Part shown: one piece after another, positions 40,504 to 53,186 of the stretch
How positions within the stretch are numbered: position 1 is the stretch's first letter
How the letters are laid out: each line of letters begins with the position of its first letter
Source of the DNA: Hyphomicrobiales bacterium
GTDB lineage: Bacteria > Pseudomonadota > Alphaproteobacteria > Rhizobiales > Devosiaceae
Direction of reading: 5' to 3'
Length of the DNA stretch: 64,000 nt
Assembly (NCBI GenBank): GCA_004144345.1
Contig: SEEL01000014.1
Coordinates: 17,626-81,625 of the forward strand
Notes under the pieces: model-generated
What the model saw: only the letters and a program-made list of their open reading frames with translations
Told to the model about the DNA's origin: nothing
Databases searched by the model: none
Program-made: the position numbers and the translations under genes

Positions 40504-40721
40504 CCGGCCCCGCCGCGACTGGCGGCCATCTTTTGTCCTTGCACACGAAGTGCTTGGCGGCCGCGGATCGGTACGCCACCGCTCCGAGTTGCCCGGGTCA
40601 TACCGTTCCGGCCGCCATGACGGGATCATTTCTTCCGCTCTGTGGTCCGCGCGCATGACAGGGCGGCTTCCTGCCCGGTGCGAGGGTGCAGGCGATGCAA
40701 CCGCCAGCACCGGAGGAACTC

Positions 40722-40904
40722 ATGGACGTCTACAGCCTCGCCGCAACCCAACTGCATTCGGGTAACCGTTCCGCGCCAAAGGACGGCAAGTCCGAAGACC
40801 GCTACTATGCCGAGGGGATTACCCTGCCCCGGTTGGCGCCGGGACTGGTCGGGCCAATCATCGTCTGTGCCCTGCTCATTTTCATCGGCCTGCCCGTCAG
40901 CTGA
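40722..40904 (+). CDS. Small single-pass membrane protein
   Basis: RBS GGAGG; 60 aa with a C-terminal hydrophobic helix. Confidence 0.55.
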   Translation: MDVYSLAATQLHSGNRSAPKDGKSEDRYYAEGITLPRLAPGLVGPIIVCALLIFIGLPVS

Positions 40905-40961
40905 CGCCGCTGACCACGAGGGCACCGCCGTGATAGGCTGCCCGGTGCCGGAGTGCGCATC

Positions 40962-41930
40962 ATGGACGATAGCGAGACCGAGAAGGCTGCAGTGGTGGCG
41001 GTGATCCGCGCCGAGACGGAAGCCTGGCTGCTGCGGGACTTCGATCTCTTGTCGAACTACTGGCTGCAATCGCCCCAGACCCGGCGCATGGAGGCCTTTG
41101 CCTCGCTCGGCGTCCGGGTCGATGAAGGTTGGGACGCCATCGCCGCCCGGCTCAGGAAGATCGTCGAGCGCTTCCCCGACCAGCATGCCTTCGAGGAGCG
41201 GGTGCGCTGGGAGAAGGTCAACATCGTCATCGAGGGCAATGTCGCCTGGATGACATTCGACCAGATCGGCAGTGACACGGGCGAAGACCGCAAGCGCCAG
41301 CTTCGCATTCTCCAGCGCATCGACGGCAACTGGAAGATCGCCTGCATGGTGATGATGGAGAGCAGCGTCGAGGAAACGAACAGCCCGCTGATCGAAATCG
41401 ACGCGGAGGGGCGCATCCTGTGGACGAACCAGTTGGCGCGCGAGCGGATCGCTGGTCACCCCGGCTTGATCAACGCCGCCGGTCGCCTGCGGGCCCGGCG
41501 CCGCGAGCGTGACGCCGGACTGCAGGACGCAGTGCGCCTGGCGTTTCGCGAGCTGCAGAGCCAGCGGCCCCTGAACGTATCGCCGAAACAGGCCTGGGCC
41601 GTAGCGCTCGGCGAGGACGAGGCCGGGCTGCCGATGCATTGCTGGGTTCTGCTCGAGGATGGCAAGGCGCTGGTGTCGTTCGACGATGCCGCGACCATCG
41701 CCAGGCGGATCACCGCGGCACAGGAAGTCTACGGGCTCTCGCCGGCCCAAGTGAGGCTTGCCCGCCTCATCGTCGATGGGCACGATCTGGCGGCCGCCGC
41801 CGATCTCCTCGCCGTCAGCATCAACACGCTGAGGACGCAATTGCAGCGGATCTTCGACAAGACCGGCGTGCGAAGCCAGGCCGCCCTCGTGCGCTCACTG
41901 CTCAGCACCGAAGCGCCGAACAAGACCTGA
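40962..41930 (+). CDS. NTF2/SnoaL-like + PAS-like + LuxR HTH regulator
   Basis: N-terminal NTF2-like domain ending GNWKIA; IDAEGRILWTN; LSPAQVRLA...HDL..AAD.L.VS.NTLRTQLQRIFDKTG. Confidence 0.8.
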   Translation: MDDSETEKAAVVAVIRAETEAWLLRDFDLLSNYWLQSPQTRRMEAFASLGVRVDEGWDAIAARLRKIVERFPDQHAFEERVRWEKVNIVIEGNVAWMTFDQIGSDTGEDRKRQLRILQRIDGNWKIACMVMMESSVEETNSPLIEIDAEGRILWTNQLARERIAGHPGLINAAGRLRARRRERDAGLQDAVRLAFRELQSQRPLNVSPKQAWAVALGEDEAGLPMHCWVLLEDGKALVSFDDAATIARRITAAQEVYGLSPAQVRLARLIVDGHDLAAAADLLAVSINTLRTQLQRIFDKTGVRSQAALVRSLLSTEAPNKT

Positions 41931-41936
41931 TGCCCG

Positions 41937-43052
41937 TCAGAGCGCCGTTCTATAGATGGTCTCAATATCTGCGAGGGTGAACTCGCGGGGGTTGTTGAGG
42001 ATCAGGCGCTTGATGGCGAAGGCGTCCTCGGCGAAGAGGCCGATATCCTCGGCCCGGGCGCCATGGTGCGCGAGGCTCATGTCGATCCCCAGCCTTGCAC
42101 AGAAGGTGAGGCTTTCCGCTCGCGCTGCAGCCTCGTCAGTTGCGCTGGCGAGGCCGAGCGCCGCCATGATGGTCGCGGTCTTGTCGCGCTGGACCGGCGC
42201 GTTGAAGGCGAGCACATGCGGAAAGATGATGGCGTTGGCGAGCCCGTGCGGCAGCTTCAGCCTGGTGCCAAGCGGATAGGCGAGCGCATGGCCGCCAGCG
42301 GTATTCACCGGCCCGAGGCAGACGCCGCCATAATAGGAAGCGAGCATCATGCCAGCCCGCGCTTCGGTGTCGCTGCCGTCGGCAACGGTGCGGCGCAGAT
42401 AGCGGCCCACCAGCTCGATGCCGAGTGTGGCATAGCCATCGATCAGCGGATGCGCCTTGATGTTGGTGAAGGCCTCGACGCAATGCGCCAGCGCGTCGAC
42501 GCCCGTGGCGGCCGTCACTGCCGGCGGCACGGAATAGGTAAGCTCGGGGTCGAGGACCGCGATATCGGCCAGCATGAAGCGGCTCTCGATCGCCAGCTTG
42601 GCCTGCGTCGCCGGGTTTGTCACCAGCGAGCGGATGCCTGCTTCCGATCCCGTGCCGGACGTCGTCGGGACCTGCGCGAGCGCCGTACGGCGGCCACCGA
42701 CCCTGTCGACGCCAACGACATCGAGCACGCTTTGCTCGCTGTCCCACAGCACGGCGACGAGCTTGGCAACATCCATCACCGAGCCGCCGCCGAGCCCGAT
42801 GACGAGATCCGGCTTGAAGGCGCGCGCGCTGGCCAGCACGGCCTCGACGGCGGGCAGGTCAGGCTCGGGCGGGATATCGGTATAGGTGACGATTTCACCG
42901 GCAAGGCCGATGCTTGCGGCAAAGCCAACCGTCGGCGCCATGGCGACAATGAAGATGCGCTTGTAGGCCGACGCCCAGAGGCCGAGCCGCCCAATCGCCC
43001 CTGCCCCGATCTCCAGACGTGCCGGCTGCAGCAGCGTGATCGGCCGCGCCAT
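41937..43052 (-). CDS. Iron-containing alcohol dehydrogenase
   Basis: GLGGGSVMDVAK, PTTSGTGSE, DALAHCVE, HALAYPLG...PHGLAN. Confidence 0.93.
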   Translation of the reverse strand: MARPITLLQPARLEIGAGAIGRLGLWASAYKRIFIVAMAPTVGFAASIGLAGEIVTYTDIPPEPDLPAVEAVLASARAFKPDLVIGLGGGSVMDVAKLVAVLWDSEQSVLDVVGVDRVGGRRTALAQVPTTSGTGSEAGIRSLVTNPATQAKLAIESRFMLADIAVLDPELTYSVPPAVTAATGVDALAHCVEAFTNIKAHPLIDGYATLGIELVGRYLRRTVADGSDTEARAGMMLASYYGGVCLGPVNTAGGHALAYPLGTRLKLPHGLANAIIFPHVLAFNAPVQRDKTATIMAALGLASATDEAAARAESLTFCARLGIDMSLAHHGARAEDIGLFAEDAFAIKRLILNNPREFTLADIETIYRTAL

Positions 43053-43065
43053 CGATAGGGTGGCG

Positions 43066-43998
43066 CTAGACATTCTCCTCGGCCTCCAGCGCGTCCATCC
43101 TGGCCCACACATTGGCGATCTCGTCTGCCGTCAGTTCGACCAGCGGCGGGCGCACCCGGGTCCAGCCGGCATGGCCGCGACGCTTCGCCAGCATCGCCTT
43201 GACGGTGGGCAATTGCACATAGGCATTGGAGAGGTCGCGCCAGGCATTGATGCGAGCCTGCGCGGCATCGACTTCGGCGCTCCTATTGGCGTCGAACCAA
43301 TTGTCGAACACGACGCGCAAATGCCTGGCGATGAGGTTCGAGCTCGAGGTGATGCAGCCGGCGCCGCGCGAGCGGAGCAGCGGCAGCATGAAAGGATCAG
43401 CCCCGGCGAGAACGGAGAAATTCTCGAAGGACGAGGCGAACGCCTGCATGCTGTCGAGCTTGCCCGAGCTATCCTTGATACCGACAACGATGCCGGGGAA
43501 GGCTTCAAGCAACCGGCCGGTCAGTTCGAGCGACAGGCCGACCTGCGCGATCGGCGGGATGTGGTAGAGCACTACCCGCAGCCTGTCACTGCCGACCCCC
43601 TCGATCACCTCCGCATAGAAGCGGAACAGTCCCTCATCGCTCACGCCCTTGTAATAGAAGGGCGGCAACAGGACGCTGGCCTGCACACCGGCGTCGAGCG
43701 CGTGCCGCGTCAGCGCAACGGTATCGCCGACATTGGTCTGCGACGTGCCGGGCAACAGGCGCTTGGCGTCGACGCCGGCCGCGATGACGTTTTCCACCAA
43801 TTGCATGCGCTGCGCGAGGCTGAACGAGTTTGCCTCGCCCGTGGTCCCGAGCAGCGCGATACCGTCGCAGCCTTCAGTCAGCAGCGCCTTGGCATGAGTG
43901 GCGAAGGCGTCGTGGTCCGGCGTGCCGTCGGCGAGCACCGGCGTCGCCGAGGCGCTGAACACGCCGTGGATGGGGAGGCTGCTGGCGGGATTCATCAC
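43066..43998 (-). CDS. DHDPS/NAL-family Schiff-base aldolase
   Basis: GTTGE, PPFYY, LYHIP, GIKDSSG (catalytic Lys). Confidence 0.92.
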
Positions 43999-44942
43999 TT
44001 CTTCCCCGAGACGAGCCGGCGCGCATAGGCGATGGCCGAATTCATGTTGACGTGGTTGGCCCGGCCCGTGCCGGCGATATCAAACGCCGTGCCGTGATCG
44101 ACCGAGGTGCGGTCGATGGGCAGGCCCAGCGACACGTTCACCGCCGTATCGAAGGCAACGAGCTTTATCGGGATGTGGCCCTGGTCGTGGTACTGCGCCA
44201 CCACCAGGTCGAACGCCCCATTGTAAGCGCGGTGATAGACCGTATCGGCGGAGATCGGCCCCGACACGTCGATGCCTTCAGCCCGCGCCATGGCGACGGC
44301 GGGCACCACCTGCTGATCGTCCTCGGTACCGAACAGCCCACTCTCGCCGCAATGCGGATTGATGCCAGCCACCGCAATGCGCGGACTGGCATAGCCGATG
44401 CGCTTCAGATGCTCATTGCCGGCGCGGATGGTCGCCAGAATGCGTTGGGGCGTCGCGCGGTCGATCGCCGTCTTCAGCGACACATGCGTCGAGACGTGGA
44501 TGACCTTGAGCCGTTCCGAGCCGAGCAGCATGAAGGCCGACTTCTGTCCGGTCAGCGCGGCGAGCATGCCGGTGTGGCCATCATAGTGGTGACCGGCGAG
44601 GTTGAGCGCTTCCTTGTTGATCGGCGCCGTGACGATGCAGCCGATGGCGCCGGCCTGCGCGTCGCGCACCGCCTTCTCGATGAAGCGGAACGCCGCGTCG
44701 CCGGCCCGCGGATCGAGCTTGCCCCAGGGCAGCACGCCGCCCTCGATCGGCAGGTCGACAACCAGCGTCTCGAGGTCGAGCGCGAGGCCCGTCGCCTGCA
44801 ACGCTTTATCCAGCGTCGCGCGGTTGCCATATATGCGGGTACGCGCCCGATCCCCGGCGCTCATCTCGGCTACCGCCTTGACCGCGATTTCGGGCCCGAC
44901 GCCGGCCGGGTCACCCATGGTGATGCCAATGATGTCGCTCAC
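43995..44942 (-). CDS. pdxA: PdxA-family (PdxA2-type) 4-phospho-tetronate dehydrogenase
   Basis: [48 protein letters not shown]. Confidence 0.93.
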
Positions 44943-46111
44943 TCGGTCACTCCGTCGATCCATCCCCGCGGGAGACGGACATATTTTATGGCGCGGCGGA
45001 AGTAGGTGTAGGCGACATGCAGCGCGCCGTCCGGACCTTCCAGCAGATAGGGGTAGGACAGTTCCCTGTTCTTGCCGTCGACCGAATTGTTGGTGAGGCA
45101 GGTGCCGGGGCTGTCATCGACGATGCGGCGCAGCGGCCAGCTCTTGCCGCCATCGCTCGAGACGCACAGCGTCAGCGGCGCGCGCGGCACGCCCCACACC
45201 GGGGCACAGCCGCCGGTGGCATCGGGTCGGTCGTCGCCCGCTTCGATCTCGTCATAGAGCGACACGCGCCGGTCCGGCGAGATTGCCGCCGACATCGGGT
45301 TGCACACCATGGCGAGTCGGCCGTCGGCGAGGCGCACGACGTTGATCGAAGAATTGTTGTTGGGCACATCGGTCGGCTCAGGCGCCGACCAGGTGAAGCC
45401 GCCATCGAGGCTTTCGGAGCGGTGGACGAAATCCGACTGGCGGCGGCGATAGAAGGCCACCATGTGGTCGCCATCGAGCGGCACGATCGTCATGTGCACC
45501 GAGCCGATGGAGCCCGGCACTTCGCTCAGCGTCCAGCTCTGCCCTTCGTCGAGACTCACTGCAACGCCGGCCGTGTCATGGCTGCCGTTCCAGCGCTGGC
45601 CGGGCCGCGAAATGCAGCGGAACACCGGCATCATCCACGCCCCGTCCTTGCGGCGCGGGAAGCGGGCACGCACAAATGTCCCGAGCGGCAGATCGAGATC
45701 GCGCGGCGCACCGCCAACCAGCCGGTCGCCCTCAAGCGACACCGGGCGCGAACGCAGCAGGCATTCGTCCTGGTTGCCGGCGGGCTGCGCCGTATGGATC
45801 AGCTGCCACTGGCCGTTGCCGTCGCGGGCAAGCACCGGGTTCTGCTCCGAGCGGTCGGGGTCGTGACTGAGCGCCACCGTCGGTCCCCAGCTCCTGGAAC
45901 CGGGCGCGAGGACCGTGCCATGGATCGAGATATCGGACTTGCCCTCCAGCGTGCCGCCGAACCACAGGCAGGCGAGCGTGCCGTCGTCGAGCAGCTCGAT
46001 GAACGCCGCATGGTTCTGCACCATCGGTGAAGCGAGGAAGGCTTCCTGCCTGCCATCAGCGCCATCGATGAGCCGCCCGTCCATGCGGGCGGCGATCTCG
46101 TCGGGAGTCAT
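44939..46111 (-). CDS. Cytoplasmic BNR/Asp-box (sialidase-like) beta-propeller protein
   Basis: Asp boxes [24 protein letters not shown]; QNHAA, EQNPVL, NNNSSI, ELSYP; no signal peptide. Confidence 0.88.
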
Positions 46112-46412
46112 CTCGTCCTCTTGCTGTTTGGCGGCAAACTCTAGGTCACCACACATGTTGTCAAGTTATAATCTCGCCGCAACACCTTGCATGTGCCGTT
46201 TTGTCTCATATTTTATATAGCTATTTCAATACGTTATACGACTACGCGACGTGACAAGCATTTGCCAAAGTAGTTTTAATTTGACAACTCGACCGCGTCT
46301 CCGGTTAGGTGCTGTCCGTTGGGCACCGCAACAGCGGCGCCCGTGGAAATATTCGCGTGGGCTGTTCGCAGCTCTGCCCATGCCTTCCGCAAAGCTGCGA
46401 AGGGAGGATGAC

Positions 46413-47918
46413 TTGATCATCAAACACGTTCTGGTGGGCGCCCTGATGGCGTCGGGGCTGGTTGCCCCGGCGATGGCGCAATCCAACACCGATATCACCG
46501 TGGTGCTCAGCGAAGAACTCGACCTGGTTGAGCCCTGCATGGCGACGCGATCCAACATTGGCCGCGTCATCATGGGCAATATCAGCGAGACGCTGACCGA
46601 GCTCGACGTGCGCGGCGACAAGGGCCTGATGCCCCGCCTCGCCGACAGCTGGGAAGACAAGGGCAATGGCACCTGGCAGTTCAAGCTGCATCCGGGCGTC
46701 AAGTTCTCCGACGGCACCGATTTCGATGCCGCCGACGTCAAGCACTCGTTCGATCGCGTCTTCAGCGACCAGATCACCTGCGAGAGCAAGCGCTACTTCG
46801 CCGACACCGCCCTGACCTTCAACATTGTCGACGCCACCACCATCGACATCACCGCGACGCCGGCCCAGCCGATCCTGCCGTTGCTGATGTCGCTCGTCAC
46901 CATCGTGCCGTCGGAAACGCCGGTCGAGTTCGTGCGTGATCCGGTCGGCACCGGCCCCTACAAGATGACCGAGTGGACCGCCGGCCAGCAGATCGTGCTC
47001 GAACGCCGCGACGATTATTGGGGCGCCGCCCCGGCCGTGACCAAGGCCACCTATGTGTTCCGCTCCGAGCCGACCGTTCGCGCGGCGATGGTCGAAGCCG
47101 GCGAGGCCGACATCGCGCCGCAGATCACCGAGGTGGAAGCCACCAACCCCAAGACCGACTTTACCTACCCGAACTCGGAAACCGTCTATCTGCGCATCGA
47201 CCAGACCGTCGAGCCGATGGGTGACCTGCGCGTCCGCAAGGCGCTCAACGCGGCGATCGATCGCGATGCCTTCATCGGCACCGTGCTTGCCGCCGGCACC
47301 GAGCTTGCTGTCGCCATGGTGCCCCCGACGACCCTGGGCTGGAACGGCGACCTCACCCCGCCGGCCTATGATCTTGAGCAGGCCAAGAAGTGGCTCGCCG
47401 AAGCCGAGGCCGATGGCGTCAACGTCAAGGCGCCGGTCGAAGTGATCGCCCGCACCGAGAACTTCCCGCACGTCACCGAAGTCGGTGAAGCGCTGGTCGA
47501 CATGCTCAACGAAGCCGGCTTCAACGCCAGCCTCCGCATGGTCGAAGTGGCCGAGCACGAGCAGTACTACTCCAAGCCCTACCCCGAAGGCCGCAATGCC
47601 CAGCTCGTCGTCGCCCAGCACGACAATGCGCGCGGCGACCCGGTGTTCTCGATGTACTTCAAGTACCACAGCCAGGGCACGCAGTCGGGCGTCAACGACC
47701 CCAAGGTCGACGAGCTGATCGAAAAGGCCAGCGCTGCGACCGGTGCGGATCGTGCCGCCCTGTGGTCCGAACTGTTCGCCTATGTGCAGAAGGACATCGT
47801 CGCCGACGCCCTGCTGTTCCACATGGTTGCCCATAGCCGGGTGAGCGAGCGTCTCGACTTCACCCCGACCATCGCCACCAACCAGCAGCTCCAGCTGAGC
47901 GAGATCGGCTTCAAGTAA
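46413..47918 (+). CDS. Opp/Dpp-type ABC substrate-binding protein (family 5)
   Basis: RBS GGGAGG, TTG start, signal peptide, LADSW, GVKFSDG, VGTGPYK, DLRVRKALNAAIDR. Confidence 0.92.
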   Translation: MIIKHVLVGALMASGLVAPAMAQSNTDITVVLSEELDLVEPCMATRSNIGRVIMGNISETLTELDVRGDKGLMPRLADSWEDKGNGTWQFKLHPGVKFSDGTDFDAADVKHSFDRVFSDQITCESKRYFADTALTFNIVDATTIDITATPAQPILPLLMSLVTIVPSETPVEFVRDPVGTGPYKMTEWTAGQQIVLERRDDYWGAAPAVTKATYVFRSEPTVRAAMVEAGEADIAPQITEVEATNPKTDFTYPNSETVYLRIDQTVEPMGDLRVRKALNAAIDRDAFIGTVLAAGTELAVAMVPPTTLGWNGDLTPPAYDLEQAKKWLAEAEADGVNVKAPVEVIARTENFPHVTEVGEALVDMLNEAGFNASLRMVEVAEHEQYYSKPYPEGRNAQLVVAQHDNARGDPVFSMYFKYHSQGTQSGVNDPKVDELIEKASAATGADRAALWSELFAYVQKDIVADALLFHMVAHSRVSERLDFTPTIATNQQLQLSEIGFK

Positions 47919-47941
47919 GCCTCTCTCCGGCCTACACTCAG

Positions 47942-47969
47942 GCGGTGCCGGACCTCACTTCGGCACCGC
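47942..47969 (+). other. Intercistronic hairpin after the SBP gene
   Basis: GCGGTGCCG/CGGCACCGC 9-bp stem. Confidence 0.55.
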
Positions 47970-47995
47970 TGCCCCGAACCAAACGGACGATCGCG

Positions 47996-48910
47996 ATGAC
48001 CAAACTGATCGGACAACGCGCGATTGCCAGTCTTCTGTCCCTGTTCGGGCTGATGATCCTGGTCTTCTTCCTGTCGCGCCTCACCGGTGACCCGGCGGTG
48101 CTGTTCCTGCCCATCGATGCCACCGAGCAGATGAAGCAGGAATTCCGTGCCCTGCACGGCCTCGACCTTCCCGTCATCGAGCAGTTCTGGCGCTACATCG
48201 TCGACCTCGCCCAGCTCGATTTCGGCGACAGCCTGCGCAAGGCCCGCCCTGCCCTCGACATCGTGCTCGAAGCCTATGCCTGGACGCTGCCGCTGGCCCT
48301 CATCACCATGGGCCTCGTCATCGTCGCCGCCATCGTGCTCGGCTCGCTCGCCGCCTTCAACGTCGGCGGCTTCTTCGACCGGCTCGTCTCCATCATCTCG
48401 CTGATCGGCGCCTCGGCCCCGGATTTCTGGATCGCCATCGTGGCGATCGTCATCTTTTCGATCGGGCTGGGCTGGGTGCCCACCTCCGGCGTCGGCACGC
48501 CGCTGCACTGGGTGTTGCCCATCGCCGTGCTGTTCATCCGCCCCTTCGGCCTCGTCGTGCAGGTGGTGCGCGGCTCGATGCTCTCAGCCCTCTCGGCGCC
48601 CTATGTGAAGACGGCGCGCGCCAAGGGCGTGAAAAACCTGCCGCTGATCTTCGTCCATACCCTGCGCAACGGCATGCTGCCGGTCGTCACCGTCATTGGC
48701 GACCAGGCCGCCGCCATGCTCAACGGCGCCGTGATCGTCGAGACCATTTTCGGCTTCCCTGGCATCGGCAAGCTGATGATCGACTCGATCCTGCAGCGCG
48801 ATTTCAACGTCGTGCTCGCCGCCATCATGATCACCGCCATCGCCATCTTCCTCATGAACATCCTGATCGACATCGCCTATTCGGTGCTCGATCCGCGTAT
48901 CCGTCACTAG
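47996..48910 (+). CDS. Opp/Dpp-type ABC permease
   Basis: GDPAV, YVKTARAKG, VETIFGFPGIG, DIAYSVLDPRIR. Confidence 0.93.
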   Translation: MTKLIGQRAIASLLSLFGLMILVFFLSRLTGDPAVLFLPIDATEQMKQEFRALHGLDLPVIEQFWRYIVDLAQLDFGDSLRKARPALDIVLEAYAWTLPLALITMGLVIVAAIVLGSLAAFNVGGFFDRLVSIISLIGASAPDFWIAIVAIVIFSIGLGWVPTSGVGTPLHWVLPIAVLFIRPFGLVVQVVRGSMLSALSAPYVKTARAKGVKNLPLIFVHTLRNGMLPVVTVIGDQAAAMLNGAVIVETIFGFPGIGKLMIDSILQRDFNVVLAAIMITAIAIFLMNILIDIAYSVLDPRIRH

Positions 48911-48922
48911 GAGGCGTCGCGC

Positions 48923-49840
48923 TTGTCCGACCTGTCGCTCGCCAAGACCCCTGCTCCCCGCCTCGCGCCGCCTTTGCTCGGCATGCTGTGGCGCGACAAG
49001 CTCGCCTTCACCTCGGCACTGGTGCTGCTGCTGATCGTCGCCGCGGCGCTGTTCGGCCCCATGCTGCTCGGCGAAATGGCGAGCGACCAGAATCTGCGTG
49101 GCCGCAATTTCCCGCCCTTCAGCCTCGACCGGGGCTGGGCCTTCTTCCTCGGCGGTGACTCTCTGGGCCGGCCGATGCTCGCCCGCCTCATCGTCGCGGC
49201 GCATTCGACCATGCTGATTGCCGCCGGCACTGTGGCCGCTGCCATGCTGATCGGCGCCACCCTCGGCCTCGTCGCGGGCTATCTGGGCCGCAACGTCTCG
49301 CAGGTCATCATGCGCCTTGCCGACGTCATCATGTCCTTCCCCTCGCTGCTGCTCGCCGTGGTGGTGCTCTATGTGCTCGGCGCGTCGATCCCCAACATGA
49401 TCCTCGTGCTCGCGCTCACCCGCATCCCGATCTATCTGCGCACGACCCGGGCCGAAGTGCTGGAAGTGCGCGAGCGCATGTTCGTACAGGCCGCCGTCGT
49501 GATGGGGGCGTCGCATGCCCGCATCATCTTCCGCCACATCCTCCCCGTCGTGGCGCCGACGCTGGTGACCATTGCAACGCTCGACTTCGCTTTCGTCATG
49601 CTGGCGGAAAGCTCGCTGAGCTTCCTCGGCATCGGCGTGCAGCCGCCCGATATCACCTGGGGCCTGATGGTGGCACAGGGCCGCCCCTACCTCACTACCG
49701 CCTGGTGGCTCGCCTTCTGGCCGGGCCTGCTGATCGTCATCACCGCCCTGTCGCTCAACCTGTTGTCGAACTGGATGCGGATCGCGCTCGACCCCAATCT
49801 GCGCTGGCGCCTCGAAGCGCGGAGTACCGCCAATGGCTGA
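48923..49840 (+). CDS. Opp/Dpp-type ABC permease
   Basis: LGGDSLGR, MRLADVIMSFP, AAVVMGAS, ESSLSFLGIG. Confidence 0.93.
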   Translation: MSDLSLAKTPAPRLAPPLLGMLWRDKLAFTSALVLLLIVAAALFGPMLLGEMASDQNLRGRNFPPFSLDRGWAFFLGGDSLGRPMLARLIVAAHSTMLIAAGTVAAAMLIGATLGLVAGYLGRNVSQVIMRLADVIMSFPSLLLAVVVLYVLGASIPNMILVLALTRIPIYLRTTRAEVLEVRERMFVQAAVVMGASHARIIFRHILPVVAPTLVTIATLDFAFVMLAESSLSFLGIGVQPPDITWGLMVAQGRPYLTTAWWLAFWPGLLIVITALSLNLLSNWMRIALDPNLRWRLEARSTANG

Positions 49841-51452
49841 CGCCCTGCTCACCGTCCGCAATCTGTCGGTCGATTTCCACACCGCCCGCGGCACCGTTCA
49901 TGCCGTCAAGAACATCAGCTGGTCGGTCGGCCGCGGCGAGACCCTTGCCGTGCTCGGCGAAAGCGGTTCGGGCAAGTCGGTCTCCGCCAATGCGGTGATG
50001 AACCTGCTCGACACTCCGCCGGCCCAGATCGTCTCGGGCGAGATCATCTATGACGGCAAGGATCTGTTGAAGGTCAGCTACGAGGAGCACCGGGCGCTCA
50101 ACGGCAAGAAGATCGCCATGATCTTCCAGGACCCGCTCGGTCACCTCAATCCGGTCTACACCGTGGGCTGGCAGATCATCGAGATGATGACCGCGCATGG
50201 CCGCCCCGCCGGCCTCGCGCGCAGCCGCGCGCTCGAACTCATCGCCCGCGTCGGCATTGCCGACCCCCAGGCGGCGATGCGCAAATATCCGCATCAATTC
50301 TCCGGCGGCCAGCGCCAGCGCCTGATGATCGCCATGGCGCTGATGCTGAAGCCCGACATCCTGATTGCCGACGAGCCGACGACGGCACTCGACGTCACCA
50401 TCCAGGCGGAAGTGCTCGCGCTCCTCAAGGAACTGCAGGCCGAGACCGGCATGAGCCTCGTGCTCATCACCCATGACCTCGGCGTTGTCGCCGAGATCGC
50501 CGACCGCGTGGTGGTGATGAACCAGGGCGAGATCGTCGAACAGGGTTCGGTGCGCGACGTCTACCACAACCCCCAGCACCCCTATACGAAGAAGCTCATT
50601 GGTGCCGCCCCCGGCAAGGGTGAGATCAAGCAGCTCGAAGCGGATTTGCCGCTCCTGCTCGACGTGAAAAACCTGAGCAAGACCTACGGCGATTTTACCG
50701 CGCTCAATAGTGTCTCGCTGACTCTCGCGCGCGGCCAGAGCCTCGCGGTCGTGGGTGAGAGCGGCTCGGGCAAATCGACCCTCGCCCGCACCCTGCTCCG
50801 GCTTGAAACCGCCGATGGCGGCGAAGCCCTGTGGAAGGGTCGCGACCTGATCCGTATGAAGGCGCGCGACCTGCTCGGTGTCCGCCGCGAAATCCAGATG
50901 GTGTTCCAGGACCCGACGCAATCGCTCAATCCGCGCATGTCGGTCTACCAGCTCATCGCCGAAGGCTGGGACATCCACCGGCTGATGCCGGACAAATCGC
51001 AGCGCCGGGCCCGGGTGCTTGAGCTGCTCGATCAGGTCGGCCTCGCACCCGAGCATGCCGAACGCTATCCGCATCAATTCTCGGGCGGCCAGCGCCAGCG
51101 CATTGCGATCGCAAGGGCGCTGGCGCTCGAGCCCGAGCTGATCATCTGCGACGAAGCGGTCTCGGCCCTCGACGTGTCCATCCAGGCGCAGGTCATCGCC
51201 CTCCTCGACGGCCTGCGCCAGCGGCTGAACATCTCGTTCCTCTTCATCGCCCATGATCTCGGCGTCGTGCGCGATTTCGCCGATACGGTGATCGTCATGA
51301 AAGCCGGTGAGATCGTCGAACGCGGCCCGACCGCACAGATCTTCGACGCCCCGCCGCACCCCTATACGCAGCGCCTCCTCGCCGCCAATCTCGACCCCGA
51401 TCCCGACGTGCAGGCCCAACGTCGCGCGGCCAAGGCGCCCGCCGATGCCTGA
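49833..51452 (+). CDS. Opp/Dpp-type ABC ATPase with two fused NBDs
   Basis: GESGSGKS x2, FSGGQRQR x2, [18 protein letters not shown]. Confidence 0.95.
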
Positions 51453-52485
51453 GCTGACGATTGTCGCCGATGATTTGACCGGCGCACTCGATACGGCCGC
51501 GCCCTTCGCCATGCGCGGCATCCGGACGGTGGTCGCGCTGAACCCCGAGGCGCTCCCCGAGGCCATCGCCAGCGGCGCCCGGATCGTCTCCGTCTCCACC
51601 GACAGCCGCGAGTTGAGCCCGGCAGGTGCCAGCAGCACTGTCGAACGGGCGATCGCCGCGCTGCCGGCGGGCACACGGCTGTTCAAGAAGATCGACTCGC
51701 GGCTCAAGGGCAATATCGAGGCCGAGCTCGATCCCCTCCCCCATACACGGAGCCTCGTCATCCCCGCCATTCCCGCCTTCGGCCGGTTGGTGCAGGGCGG
51801 CAGTCTCCACGGCGCCGGCGTCAGCGAGCCCATCGGCATCGCCGCCCGCCTCGGCCGCCACGCGGGCGCCGCGACCATCCCCGACATCCGCACCCAGGCC
51901 GATATCGAGGCCGCCCTCGCTGGCGATTTTGACCTGCTCGTCGGCGCGCGGGGCCTCGCCGAGGCGATGGCCGTCGCAATGGCGCCTGAACCGCGCGTGC
52001 CCGGCATCGAGCTGCCGTCCGGCCCCGCTTATTGCGTGATCGGCTCCACCGATCCCATCACTGTCGAACAACTCAGGCGCCTGCGCCGCCGCCTGCCGGA
52101 GCTCGCTTGCATCGCCGCGCCCAATGGCGAAGCGCCCATCGGCTTGGCCGCCGCCGGGCCGCTGACCATCATCGAAGCGACGCAGGGAACCGCACCCGCC
52201 GACGCGAGGACCGTTGCCGCGGCTCTCGCCCGCTCCCTCGTCCGCCTGTCGCCGCCGCCGGGCGCGCTGCTTGTCCTCTCAGGCGGGGCTACCGCTCAGG
52301 CCATTCTCGAGCAGATGCATGTGCATATCCTCGATCTGGTCGGCGAAGCGTTGCCCGGCCTGCCCTTGGCGACAGCAGGTGACTTGACTGTCGTGACCAA
52401 ATCGGGCGGCTTTGGCGACGAGAACACCCTGCTTCGCCTGCTCGCTGGGTTTCTCGAACCCCGGGAGCGTGTTGCCCTATCATGA
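51445..52485 (+). CDS. Four-carbon acid sugar kinase (DUF1537, DtnK/DenK family)
   Basis: VADDLTGALD, FKKIDSRLKGNI, PAIPAFGR, SGGATA, TKSGGFG. Confidence 0.92.
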   Translation: MPELTIVADDLTGALDTAAPFAMRGIRTVVALNPEALPEAIASGARIVSVSTDSRELSPAGASSTVERAIAALPAGTRLFKKIDSRLKGNIEAELDPLPHTRSLVIPAIPAFGRLVQGGSLHGAGVSEPIGIAARLGRHAGAATIPDIRTQADIEAALAGDFDLLVGARGLAEAMAVAMAPEPRVPGIELPSGPAYCVIGSTDPITVEQLRRLRRRLPELACIAAPNGEAPIGLAAAGPLTIIEATQGTAPADARTVAAALARSLVRLSPPPGALLVLSGGATAQAILEQMHVHILDLVGEALPGLPLATAGDLTVVTKSGGFGDENTLLRLLAGFLEPRERVALS

Positions 52486-53186
52486 ACGAAGGTCTCAACG
52501 TCCGGCGCAGCCTCTCCGATGCGGTGTTCGATCGCATCCAGCGGGCCATCAAGTCCGGGGCCTATGCCATTGATGAGCGCCTGCCCACCGAGCACACGCT
52601 TGCCTCCGAATTCCAGGTGTCGCGACCGGTGGTCCGCGATGCCCTGCAGCGGCTGCGCGATCAGGGCCTCATCTACTCGCGTCGCGGCGCCGGCAGCTTT
52701 GTGCGCGAACAGGGCATCCGCGAGCCGCTCGGCTTCGGCCAGATGGAGAACCTCTCCGATCTGCAGCATTGCTACGATTTTCGCCTGACCATCGAGCCAG
52801 AGGCGGCGGCGATGGCGGCCCTCAGGCGCACACCCGAGGGGCTGCAGAAGATCAAGACGGCGCTGGCCCTGCTGCGCGACGCGACCAACCGGCAGGCGCA
52901 CCGCGCCGATGCCGATTTTCTGTTCCACCTCAGCATCGCCCAGGCCTCGGGGAACCCCTATTTCTCCACTGCCATGCAGGCGCTCGAAGAGCACATCGCC
53001 GTGGGTATGCGCTTTCACGGCATGACGCTGCGTAGCACCACCGATGGCCTCCAGCATGTGTTCGTCGAACACTCCGCGGTGTGCGAGGCGATCGAGCGCG
53101 GCGACGCATCTGCGGCCCGCAGCCTGATGCGCACCCACCTCACCGGCTCCCGCGACCGCCTGTTCGCGCCCAAGCCCCCGGCCTGA
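52482..53186 (+). CDS. GntR/FadR family regulator
   Basis: RLPTEHTLASEFQVSRPVVRDAL, GAGSFV, FHLSIAQASGN. Confidence 0.94.
   Translation: MNEGLNVRRSLSDAVFDRIQRAIKSGAYAIDERLPTEHTLASEFQVSRPVVRDALQRLRDQGLIYSRRGAGSFVREQGIREPLGFGQMENLSDLQHCYDFRLTIEPEAAAMAALRRTPEGLQKIKTALALLRDATNRQAHRADADFLFHLSIAQASGNPYFSTAMQALEEHIAVGMRFHGMTLRSTTDGLQHVFVEHSAVCEAIERGDASAARSLMRTHLTGSRDRLFAPKPPA

Follow-up and report, generated by a model that had tools for sequence, protein, structure and literature searches.

Background

Several described bacterial routes resemble parts of the gene cluster reported here. The glucarate/galactarate route of E. coli uses the aldolase GarL, the tartronate semialdehyde reductase GarR and the glycerate kinase GarK, and sialic acid (nan) catabolism draws on a sialidase, SiaT or NanT, NanQ (YhcH) and the NanA lyase. 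D-Threonate is reportedly handled by an enzyme pair described by Zhang et al. in PNAS in 2016, consisting of the DUF1537 kinase DtnK and PdxA2. The cluster studied here occupies positions 41937-53186 of a 64,000-nucleotide stretch of contig SEEL01000014.1 (GenBank assembly GCA_004144345.1) from a Hyphomicrobiales bacterium of the family Devosiaceae, here called the window. It encodes a sialidase-fold BNR protein, a pyruvate aldolase, an iron-dependent alcohol dehydrogenase (Fe-ADH), a DUF1537 kinase and a PdxA2-type dehydrogenase, a set of five enzymes referred to below as the module, together with an importer and a regulator.

As in the glucarate route, a 2-keto-3-deoxy aldaric acid would be cleaved to pyruvate and an acid semialdehyde, followed by reduction and phosphorylation, and one version of the module (L197) has an aldolase of the GarL/HpaI family. 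The module differs in that its substrate would have seven carbons (C7) rather than six and its aldehyde half four, in that its reductase is an Fe-ADH and its kinase a DUF1537 protein, and in the extra decarboxylation by PdxA2. With nan catabolism it shares a sialidase-fold protein, a DHDPS-family lyase and a regulator whose best match is NanR, and sister clusters contain a symporter of the sodium:solute family and YhcH; in contrast to nan catabolism, the BNR protein is predicted to be cytoplasmic and has neither the RIP arginine nor the catalytic Glu, an N-acetylmannosamine kinase, an epimerase and a deacetylase are absent, and a tetronate route is placed downstream. With the DtnK/PdxA2 pair the module has in common both protein families, their order and the predicted products, dihydroxyacetone phosphate (DHAP) and CO2, and both proteins of a sister locus (L022) pass the corresponding cut-offs; here, however, the pair is joined by a dedicated importer and by three enzymes placed before it in the route, the window proteins fall under the cut-offs, the kinase is about 80-100 residues shorter and the two genes stand on opposite arms of the cluster. 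The proposed aldolase reaction would also match the HpaI/HpcH step of homoprotocatechuate degradation, which splits a C7 4-hydroxy-2-oxo diacid into pyruvate and a C4 acid semialdehyde; this aromatic pathway has no kinase, PdxA2 or sialidase-fold partner.

A search of the accessible literature for catabolism of 3-deoxy-D-lyxo-hept-2-ulosaric acid (Dha) and for this combination of enzymes found no described pathway. This agrees with an initial annotation, made from the window sequence alone, which knew of no Dha catabolic pathway. The cluster itself has been seen before: versions from E. coli and S. meliloti have already been reported without a substrate (PMC12928451). In that 2026 study, island GR6 of B2/ExPEC E. 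coli, as listed for BEN2908, is composed of a CitT-like permease, a NanQ-like protein, a sialidase-like COG4692 protein, DapA, an Fe-ADH, a DtnK-like kinase, PdxA2 and a DeoR-type regulator, and S. meliloti pSymB carries a cluster with an ABC transporter, like that of the window; a substrate is named for neither version, and only chemistry related to vitamin B6 is considered. Both resemble the Devosia cluster in their COG4692, DapA-like, Fe-ADH, DtnK-like and PdxA2 proteins, and differ from it in the aldolase, which in Devosia is of a type (A) that adjoins PdxA and not of type B.

From the genes, their motifs, the fold of the BNR protein and their co-inheritance, all of which were observed, we infer the reactions, substrate and regulation proposed here. 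The cluster would be a two-operon regulon for an imported C7 3-deoxy-2-ulosaric acid, with Dha or a small Dha derivative as the best candidate, a reading to which we give about an even chance. The Opp-type ABC system would import the substrate, and the cytoplasmic BNR protein would convert the imported form to the free acid required by the aldolase, perhaps by hydrolysing a small ketoside, or by opening or hydrating an anhydro, lactone or ring form. Cleavage of the C3-C4 bond by the DHDPS-family aldolase would yield pyruvate and D-threuronate, a C4 acid semialdehyde whose aldehyde group the Fe-ADH would reduce to D-threonate. The DUF1537 kinase would then form 4-phospho-D-threonate, and the PdxA2-type enzyme would convert this to DHAP and CO2 by oxidation and decarboxylation. 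Both arms would be derepressed by the FCD regulator, whose site of action is probably at or close to two TTGACAAC boxes, once the sugar acid or a pathway intermediate is present.

Put forward more tentatively, at somewhat under an even chance, is the wider proposal that the module is the first Dha catabolic pathway, common to rhizobia, Agrobacterium, Ralstonia, Pantoea, B2 E. coli and Devosia, and that its BNR protein catalyses a new ulosaric-acid reaction as a Dha-specific ketosidase, a hydratase or a ring- or lactone-opening enzyme. If true, it would fill a gap in the plant cell wall carbon cycle, in which the other rare sugars of rhamnogalacturonan II (RG-II) are only partly covered. It would also account for the conservation of this island among symbionts and pathogens of plants and in extraintestinal E. 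coli, and a real substrate could be assigned to a large family of "predicted neuraminidases" that are not sialidases.

Organisation of the divergent cluster

Ten genes were recognised between 41937 and 53186, arranged as two divergent arms with four genes on the minus strand and six on the plus strand. Each carries the domain named for it in the initial annotation of a divergent, FadR-linked cluster, as judged by Pfam searches, and the cluster boundaries given there hold. Neighbouring genes inside each arm overlap by 4-25 nucleotides (nt), and the kinase and PdxA genes belong to opposite arms of the regulon. The features are as follows.

41937-43073, minus strand: Fe-ADH, group III (Pfam Fe-ADH and ADH_Fe_C)
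43066-43998, minus strand: DHDPS/NAL-family class I pyruvate aldolase, type A (PF00701, 144 bits)
43995-44963, minus strand: PdxA2-type oxidative decarboxylase (PF04166, 330 bits)
44939-46111, minus strand: BNR_2 sialidase-fold protein, 390 amino acids (PF13088, 181 bits)
46112-46412, no strand: divergent control region (comparison of intergenic regions)
46413-47918, plus strand: SBP_bac_5 periplasmic solute-binding protein (SBP), family 5, PepT/Opp type (PF00496)
47945-48910 and 48923-49840, plus strand: two ABC permeases (BPD_transp_1 and OppC_N)
49833-51452, plus strand: fused double ABC ATPase (two ABC_tran domains and oligo_HPY)
51445-52485, plus strand: shortened DUF1537 acid-sugar kinase, 346 amino acids (SBD_N and NBD_C)
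52482-53186, plus strand: GntR/FCD regulator of the FadR subfamily (GntR and FCD domains)

Conservation of the five-enzyme module

Related loci were collected with the BNR protein alone: 10 from 401 genomes of the phylum, 80 from contigs representing one genome per species, and 80 from metagenomes, for which distant members served as queries. The five enzymes of the module occur together in more than 100 loci, and metagenome contigs with GC contents of 0.31-0.71 repeat the set. Among the 65 species loci with full 10-kb flanks, the Fe-ADH and a DHDPS-family gene are present in every case (65/65 each), the FCD regulator in 62, PdxA in 58 and the DUF1537 kinase in 54. Most gaps belong to one layout, represented by L065 and L076, in which PdxA lies at the extreme edge of the retrieved stretch; in the other loci of that layout it probably lies just outside the flank.

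The five enzymes are constant across distant lineages, while the regulator (FCD-GntR or DeoR) and the transporter vary. Alphaproteobacterial loci combine an Opp-type ABC system with an FCD regulator, and the layout on plasmid pAtC58 of A. fabrum C58 is identical to that of the Devosia cluster. The gammaproteobacterial locus L022 and the loci of Pantoea and Ralstonia have a sodium:solute symporter and DeoR instead. L022 and Pantoea again have two arms, one with DeoR, PdxA and the kinase and the other with the Fe-ADH, DHDPS, symporter, BNR, YhcH and SDR genes, and in L021 and Ralstonia the whole gene set forms a single operon. TRAP components (DctQM) were identified by Pfam in L183, and TctABC or several TctC receptors in L192 and L197.

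Soil and plant bacteria predominate among the hosts (Devosia, Chelativorans, Agrobacterium, Rhizobium, Shinella, Ensifer, Paracoccus, Amaricoccus and Halomonas). BNR homologues on plasmids come mostly from Rhizobium, Sinorhizobium, Pantoea, Ralstonia solanacearum and Agrobacterium.

YhcH and SDR genes follow the BNR gene on its 3' side in L022 (10752-12059) and in the Pantoea locus L127 (13181-14333). In metagenome versions SDR recurs, as does YhcH in a few loci; neither gene was found near the alphaproteobacterial cluster. The YhcH of the sister clusters has N-acetylneuraminate anomerase as its top match, under the cut-off. BNR homologues are also carried by three haloarchaeal plasmids of Haladaptatus, and the control genome of Haloferax volcanii gave matches for BNR_2, DUF1537, PdxA and DHDPS; the module may reach the archaea.

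The pyruvate aldolase and the alcohol dehydrogenase

The window aldolase retains the GTTGE motif, the Tyr in LYHIP and the Schiff-base Lys in GIKDSSG, and every DHDPS version among the loci keeps the Schiff-base Lys, the Tyr and the GxTGE motif. Arg138 of DapA binds the carboxylate of aspartate semialdehyde, itself a C4 acid semialdehyde. The window protein has Ile at this position and is therefore not a true DapA; its score against TIGR00674 is 127, with a cut-off of 206. The best DHDPS-family match of the host genome lies on contig C19. The second-best NCBIfam match of the window aldolase is TIGR02313, a DHDPS-family 2,4-dihydroxyhept-2-ene-1,7-dioate aldolase, at 102 bits against a cut-off of 397.

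Two DHDPS types, about 25% identical to each other, were distinguished. Type A was found in 24 of the 65 loci and type B in 41, never both; the type B gene lies directly 3' of the ATPase gene, and its product has Arg or Lys at the Arg138 position. In L197 (12278-13060, a metagenome contig) the DHDPS place is taken by an HpcH/HpaI class II aldolase, a member of the family of GarL and 4-hydroxy-2-oxoheptanedioate aldolase, flanked by three TctC receptors. An accessory role for the aldolase, which the presence of type A in only about one third of loci might suggest, was rejected, as type B is present in all others and HpcH in L197. That three independent solutions fill the slot is a strong argument that the step is carried out by a pyruvate aldolase with a 4-hydroxy-2-oxo acid as its substrate.

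The Fe-ADH contains the GGGS nucleotide motif within GLGGGSVMD and the Asp/His/His/His ligands in VDALAH, GGHALA and LPHGLA. Its top NCBIfam matches are aldehyde or semialdehyde reductases (4-hydroxybutyrate dehydrogenase, lactaldehyde reductase), all under their cut-offs. Fe-ADHs interconvert aldehydes and alcohols and are not known to oxidise aldehydes to acids.

The kinase and the PdxA2-type dehydrogenase

The motifs ADDLTGALD, KKIDSRLKGN, SGGATA and TKSGGFG are present in the window kinase, which at 346 amino acids is shorter than the usual form of about 420-440; alignment with the 442-residue kinase of L022 places the difference in three deletions that leave the motifs in place. The statement that the cluster proteins all have intact motifs stands for the aldolase, the Fe-ADH and the kinase, but not for the BNR protein, which is without the canonical sialidase active site.

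With 615 bits, the syntenic kinase of L022 exceeds the D-threonate kinase cut-off of 450, and the L022 PdxA, with 681 bits, exceeds the D-threonate 4-phosphate dehydrogenase cut-off of 583; D-threonate 4-phosphate dehydrogenase is also the name given by PGAP to the Pantoea PdxA. The window PdxA shares 44-46% identity with its Pantoea and L022 counterparts. Among solved structures it comes closest to PdxA2 (2hi1) and to D-threonate 4-phosphate dehydrogenase (6e85), with E values of about 1e-85, compared with about 1e-46 for housekeeping PdxA. Kinase and PdxA genes are adjacent in most loci, and on the Ralstonia solanacearum megaplasmid (L107, 5079-7379) they are fused into one gene for a protein of 766 amino acids that is annotated as hypothetical. 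The window kinase gene is the only DUF1537 gene in the host genome.

A role of the pair in vitamin B6 metabolism, converting 4-hydroxythreonine to 4-phosphohydroxythreonine and only loosely linked to the sugar-acid genes around it, would be in keeping with the passing of the generic TIGR00557 pdxA cut-off by the window PdxA and with the E. coli BEN2908 paper, which describes kinase and PdxA2 as B6-related and cites Thiaville et al. 2016 (PMC12928451). The host genome, however, encodes a second, separate PdxA on contig C19, and kinase and PdxA2 genes are inherited together with those for the BNR protein, the aldolase and the Fe-ADH over a wide range of GC content, share a regulator of sugar-acid type with these neighbours and in some cases, such as L021, lie with them in a single operon. 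A 2023 genomics study of vitamin B6 moreover places PdxA2 in organic-acid catabolism. A B6 function for the pair is accordingly regarded as very improbable.

Two further observations were made on the kinase family. The module kinases of Alphaproteobacteria, exemplified by the window protein and by L106 (13059-14087), represent a minimal DUF1537 form of about 345 amino acids. They also evolve faster than the products of neighbouring genes, with 41-66% identity in loci where the ABC ATPase has 67-92%.

The sialidase-fold protein

No signal peptide was found in the BNR protein, which is thus predicted to be cytoplasmic. Its AlphaFold model (pLDDT 90.6) is a six-bladed propeller, and the top Foldseek matches of the model are GH33 sialidases at a TM score of 0.69 and 15% identity. 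The Asp-box match in Pfam is weak, and a sequence search of solved structures returned marginal matches only.

The active site was judged from hidden Markov model alignments to NanB and NanC. In the alignment to pneumococcal NanB, E56 corresponds to the acid/base Asp, H206 to the catalytic Glu and R222 to the second Arg of the triad; the H206 position is occupied by His or Gln in distant members. The RIP motif was not found in the protein, and the expected position holds an invariant QNHAA, with His in place of the RIP arginine. From spacing alone, R310 can be guessed to be the third arginine of the triad, and Tyr353, which lies in an invariant SYP, is a candidate nucleophile. The protein is clearly an enzyme, since about 25 of its residues stay unchanged in relatives as distant as 31% identity. 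Of the features of a GH33 exo-sialidase, the propeller was found, whereas the arginine triad, the catalytic set of Tyr/Glu and Asp, and secretion were not. These comparisons indicate that the protein is not a canonical sialidase.

The initial annotation had the BNR protein freeing Dha from an imported glycoside. The case for release from a glycoside or oligosaccharide is now weak, because sister clusters import their substrate through symporter, TRAP and tripartite tricarboxylate transporter (TTT) systems, which mostly carry small solutes; the absence of the RIP arginine and the replacement of the Glu by His206 tell against it as well. The substrate of the protein may be a small ketoside or a compound in anhydro, lactone or ring form.

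Transport and identity of the substrate

TRAP, TTT and CitT-type systems are carboxylate carriers. The replacement of the Opp system by TRAP, TctABC and CitT-like systems elsewhere fits a carboxylate substrate, probably a dicarboxylate. No redox enzyme other than the Fe-ADH occurs in all versions of the module, so the fragment that it receives should already carry a carboxylate, and because kinase and PdxA2 finish the route this fragment must become a tetronate. Since the loss of pyruvate leaves n-3 carbons and a C4 acid semialdehyde is needed, the substrate would be a C7 2-keto-3-deoxy dicarboxylic acid. To judge by comparison of the loci, the logic of this pathway is well supported: the carbon bookkeeping proposed at the outset, from a C7 diacid to pyruvate and a C4 semialdehyde and on through D-threonate to DHAP and CO2, is backed by the conservation of the module, the three aldolase lineages, the carboxylate carriers and the scores of the L022 proteins.

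To our knowledge, Dha is the only natural C7 ulosaric sugar, and it is a signature sugar of pectic RG-II and of green-algal scales. Its C4-C6 stereochemistry is D-lyxo, and when this was worked through by hand C5 and C6 became C3 and C2 of the tetronate, giving D-threonate, as had been proposed. The sialidase-like fold, YhcH and the sodium:solute symporter look, from their families, like a front end of ulosonic-acid style. As the plasmid copies are found mostly in plant-associated genera, plant association was counted for the Dha reading.

The window SBP has solved relatives that include binders of nickel, dipeptides, agrocinopine and agropinic acid. The last two ligands raise the possibility that a conjugate, opine-like or a tetronate glycoside, is imported and split by the BNR protein into two branches, with the aldolase and Fe-ADH taking a 2-keto-3-deoxy half (to pyruvate and lactaldehyde or glycolaldehyde) and the kinase and PdxA2 a tetronate half. 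The constancy of a cytoplasmic hydrolase-like protein and the presence of lactaldehyde reductase among the best Fe-ADH matches would fit such a scheme. We consider both the conjugate and this division of labour improbable, as the symporter, TRAP and TTT systems of the sister clusters are mostly small-solute carriers, no such conjugate is known, and the linear route employs each enzyme once and without a gap.

Several observations weigh against the linear route from Dha to D-threonate as it is drawn here. The best NCBIfam match of the window kinase is the D-threonate kinase model NF047819, yet it scores only 99.7 against a cut-off of 450, and the protein has its three deletions; the window PdxA reaches 315 against the cut-off of 583 of the D-threonate 4-phosphate dehydrogenase model NF002891. 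The type A aldolase lacks a residue of the Arg138 type, and the BNR protein, though constant in the module, is without two of the canonical catalytic residues of sialidases. Import of a sugar diacid through an Opp-type SBP would be unusual. Little free Dha occurs in nature, no pectin-related genes were found in the window or its flanks, and no DUF1537 gene was found in the control genome of Bacteroides thetaiotaomicron, the model degrader of Dha-bearing RG-II. No recognisable carbohydrate-active enzyme was seen in the open reading frames (ORFs) of four low-GC metagenome loci and four high-GC loci, of which few ORFs were scanned with Pfam.

Some of these points would be accommodated if the same module and reaction types served another acid sugar, either another C7 ulosaric or ulosonic acid (such as a 3-deoxy-heptulosonate yielding a tetrose that is then oxidised) or an amino analogue leading to 4-hydroxythreonine. 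Kinase and PdxA scores under the D-threonate equivalog cut-offs, a locus that has no pectin link and a non-canonical BNR site would all agree with a different substrate, and according to the 2023 vitamin B6 genomics study, which cites Thiaville 2016, PdxA2 is also able to carry out the PdxA reaction on 4-phosphohydroxythreonine. Oxidation of a tetrose, on the other hand, would call for an aldehyde dehydrogenase or a lactonase, and neither recurs in the module. Nor are Fe-ADHs known to us for making acids from aldehydes. The TRAP, TctABC and CitT-type carriers point to (di)carboxylates, the sister kinase and PdxA of L022 pass the D-threonate cut-offs, and no other natural C7 ulosaric acid is known to us. 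Another acid sugar is on balance thought unlikely, and Dha is kept as the preferred candidate; as the substrate itself it is a reasoned guess, with a likelihood approaching but hardly exceeding one half.

The regulator and the divergent control region

An N-terminal GntR winged helix (PF00392) and a C-terminal FCD domain (PF07729) were both matched in the regulator, whose top NCBIfam match is NanR, under its cut-off. The 301-bp divergent region contains two inverted TTGACAAC boxes, GTTGTCAAGTT at 46157-46167 and TTTGACAAC at 46280-46288. Both are invariant in nine intergenic regions from Devosiaceae and Chelativorans that elsewhere are 55% identical. A perfect -35 hexamer lies inside each box, and from this pattern the boxes appear to mark both promoters and may double as the FCD operator; the promoter and operator readings are inseparable because each box holds such a hexamer. 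A strict scan of the control region for promoters and terminators gave no match. A GCAGC...GCTGC hairpin at 46368-46398 on the plus strand lies directly 5' of the SBP ribosome-binding site, and its stem ends are invariant in nine relatives; its folding energy is not unusual (z = -1.0).

Gene boundaries and flanking genes

Several starts were revised. The Fe-ADH ORF extends over 41937-43112, and the ATG at 43073 is the likelier start. The BNR ORF (44939-46156) was shortened to Met16 at 46111, which gives 390 amino acids and matches 120 listed homologues. The SBP ORF opens at 46251, and the conserved start is a TTG at 46413, which is followed by a Sec signal peptide (AMA-Q). Correction of the kinase start to 51445 gives the protein of 346 amino acids.

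The host genome is 4.1 Mb in size with about 65% GC, and the closest relatives of the BNR protein (76-89% identity) are from Devosia and Pelagibacterium. The flanking genes are unrelated: one flank holds a creatininase/AstE/SDR cluster and a convergent gene of LuxR type, the other an alpha-glucan cluster. A minus-strand ORF at 40626-41840 was considered as a fifth gene of the minus arm, beyond the Fe-ADH, and was rejected on account of its codon-position GC. The true gene there lies on the plus strand at 40953-41930 and is convergent on the Fe-ADH gene, with a third-position GC of 0.86 and a product of 325 amino acids. This protein gave no Pfam match at 1e-5 and has no counterpart in the related loci; by eye, its C-terminus was judged to contain a helix-turn-helix of LuxR/GerE type.

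Elsewhere in the same genome, about 37 kb of contig C45 (approximately 80-118 kb; L128 and L129) contain four BNR_2 paralogues and two DHDPS-family genes, and may represent a second locus of ulosonic-acid type in this Devosia genome.

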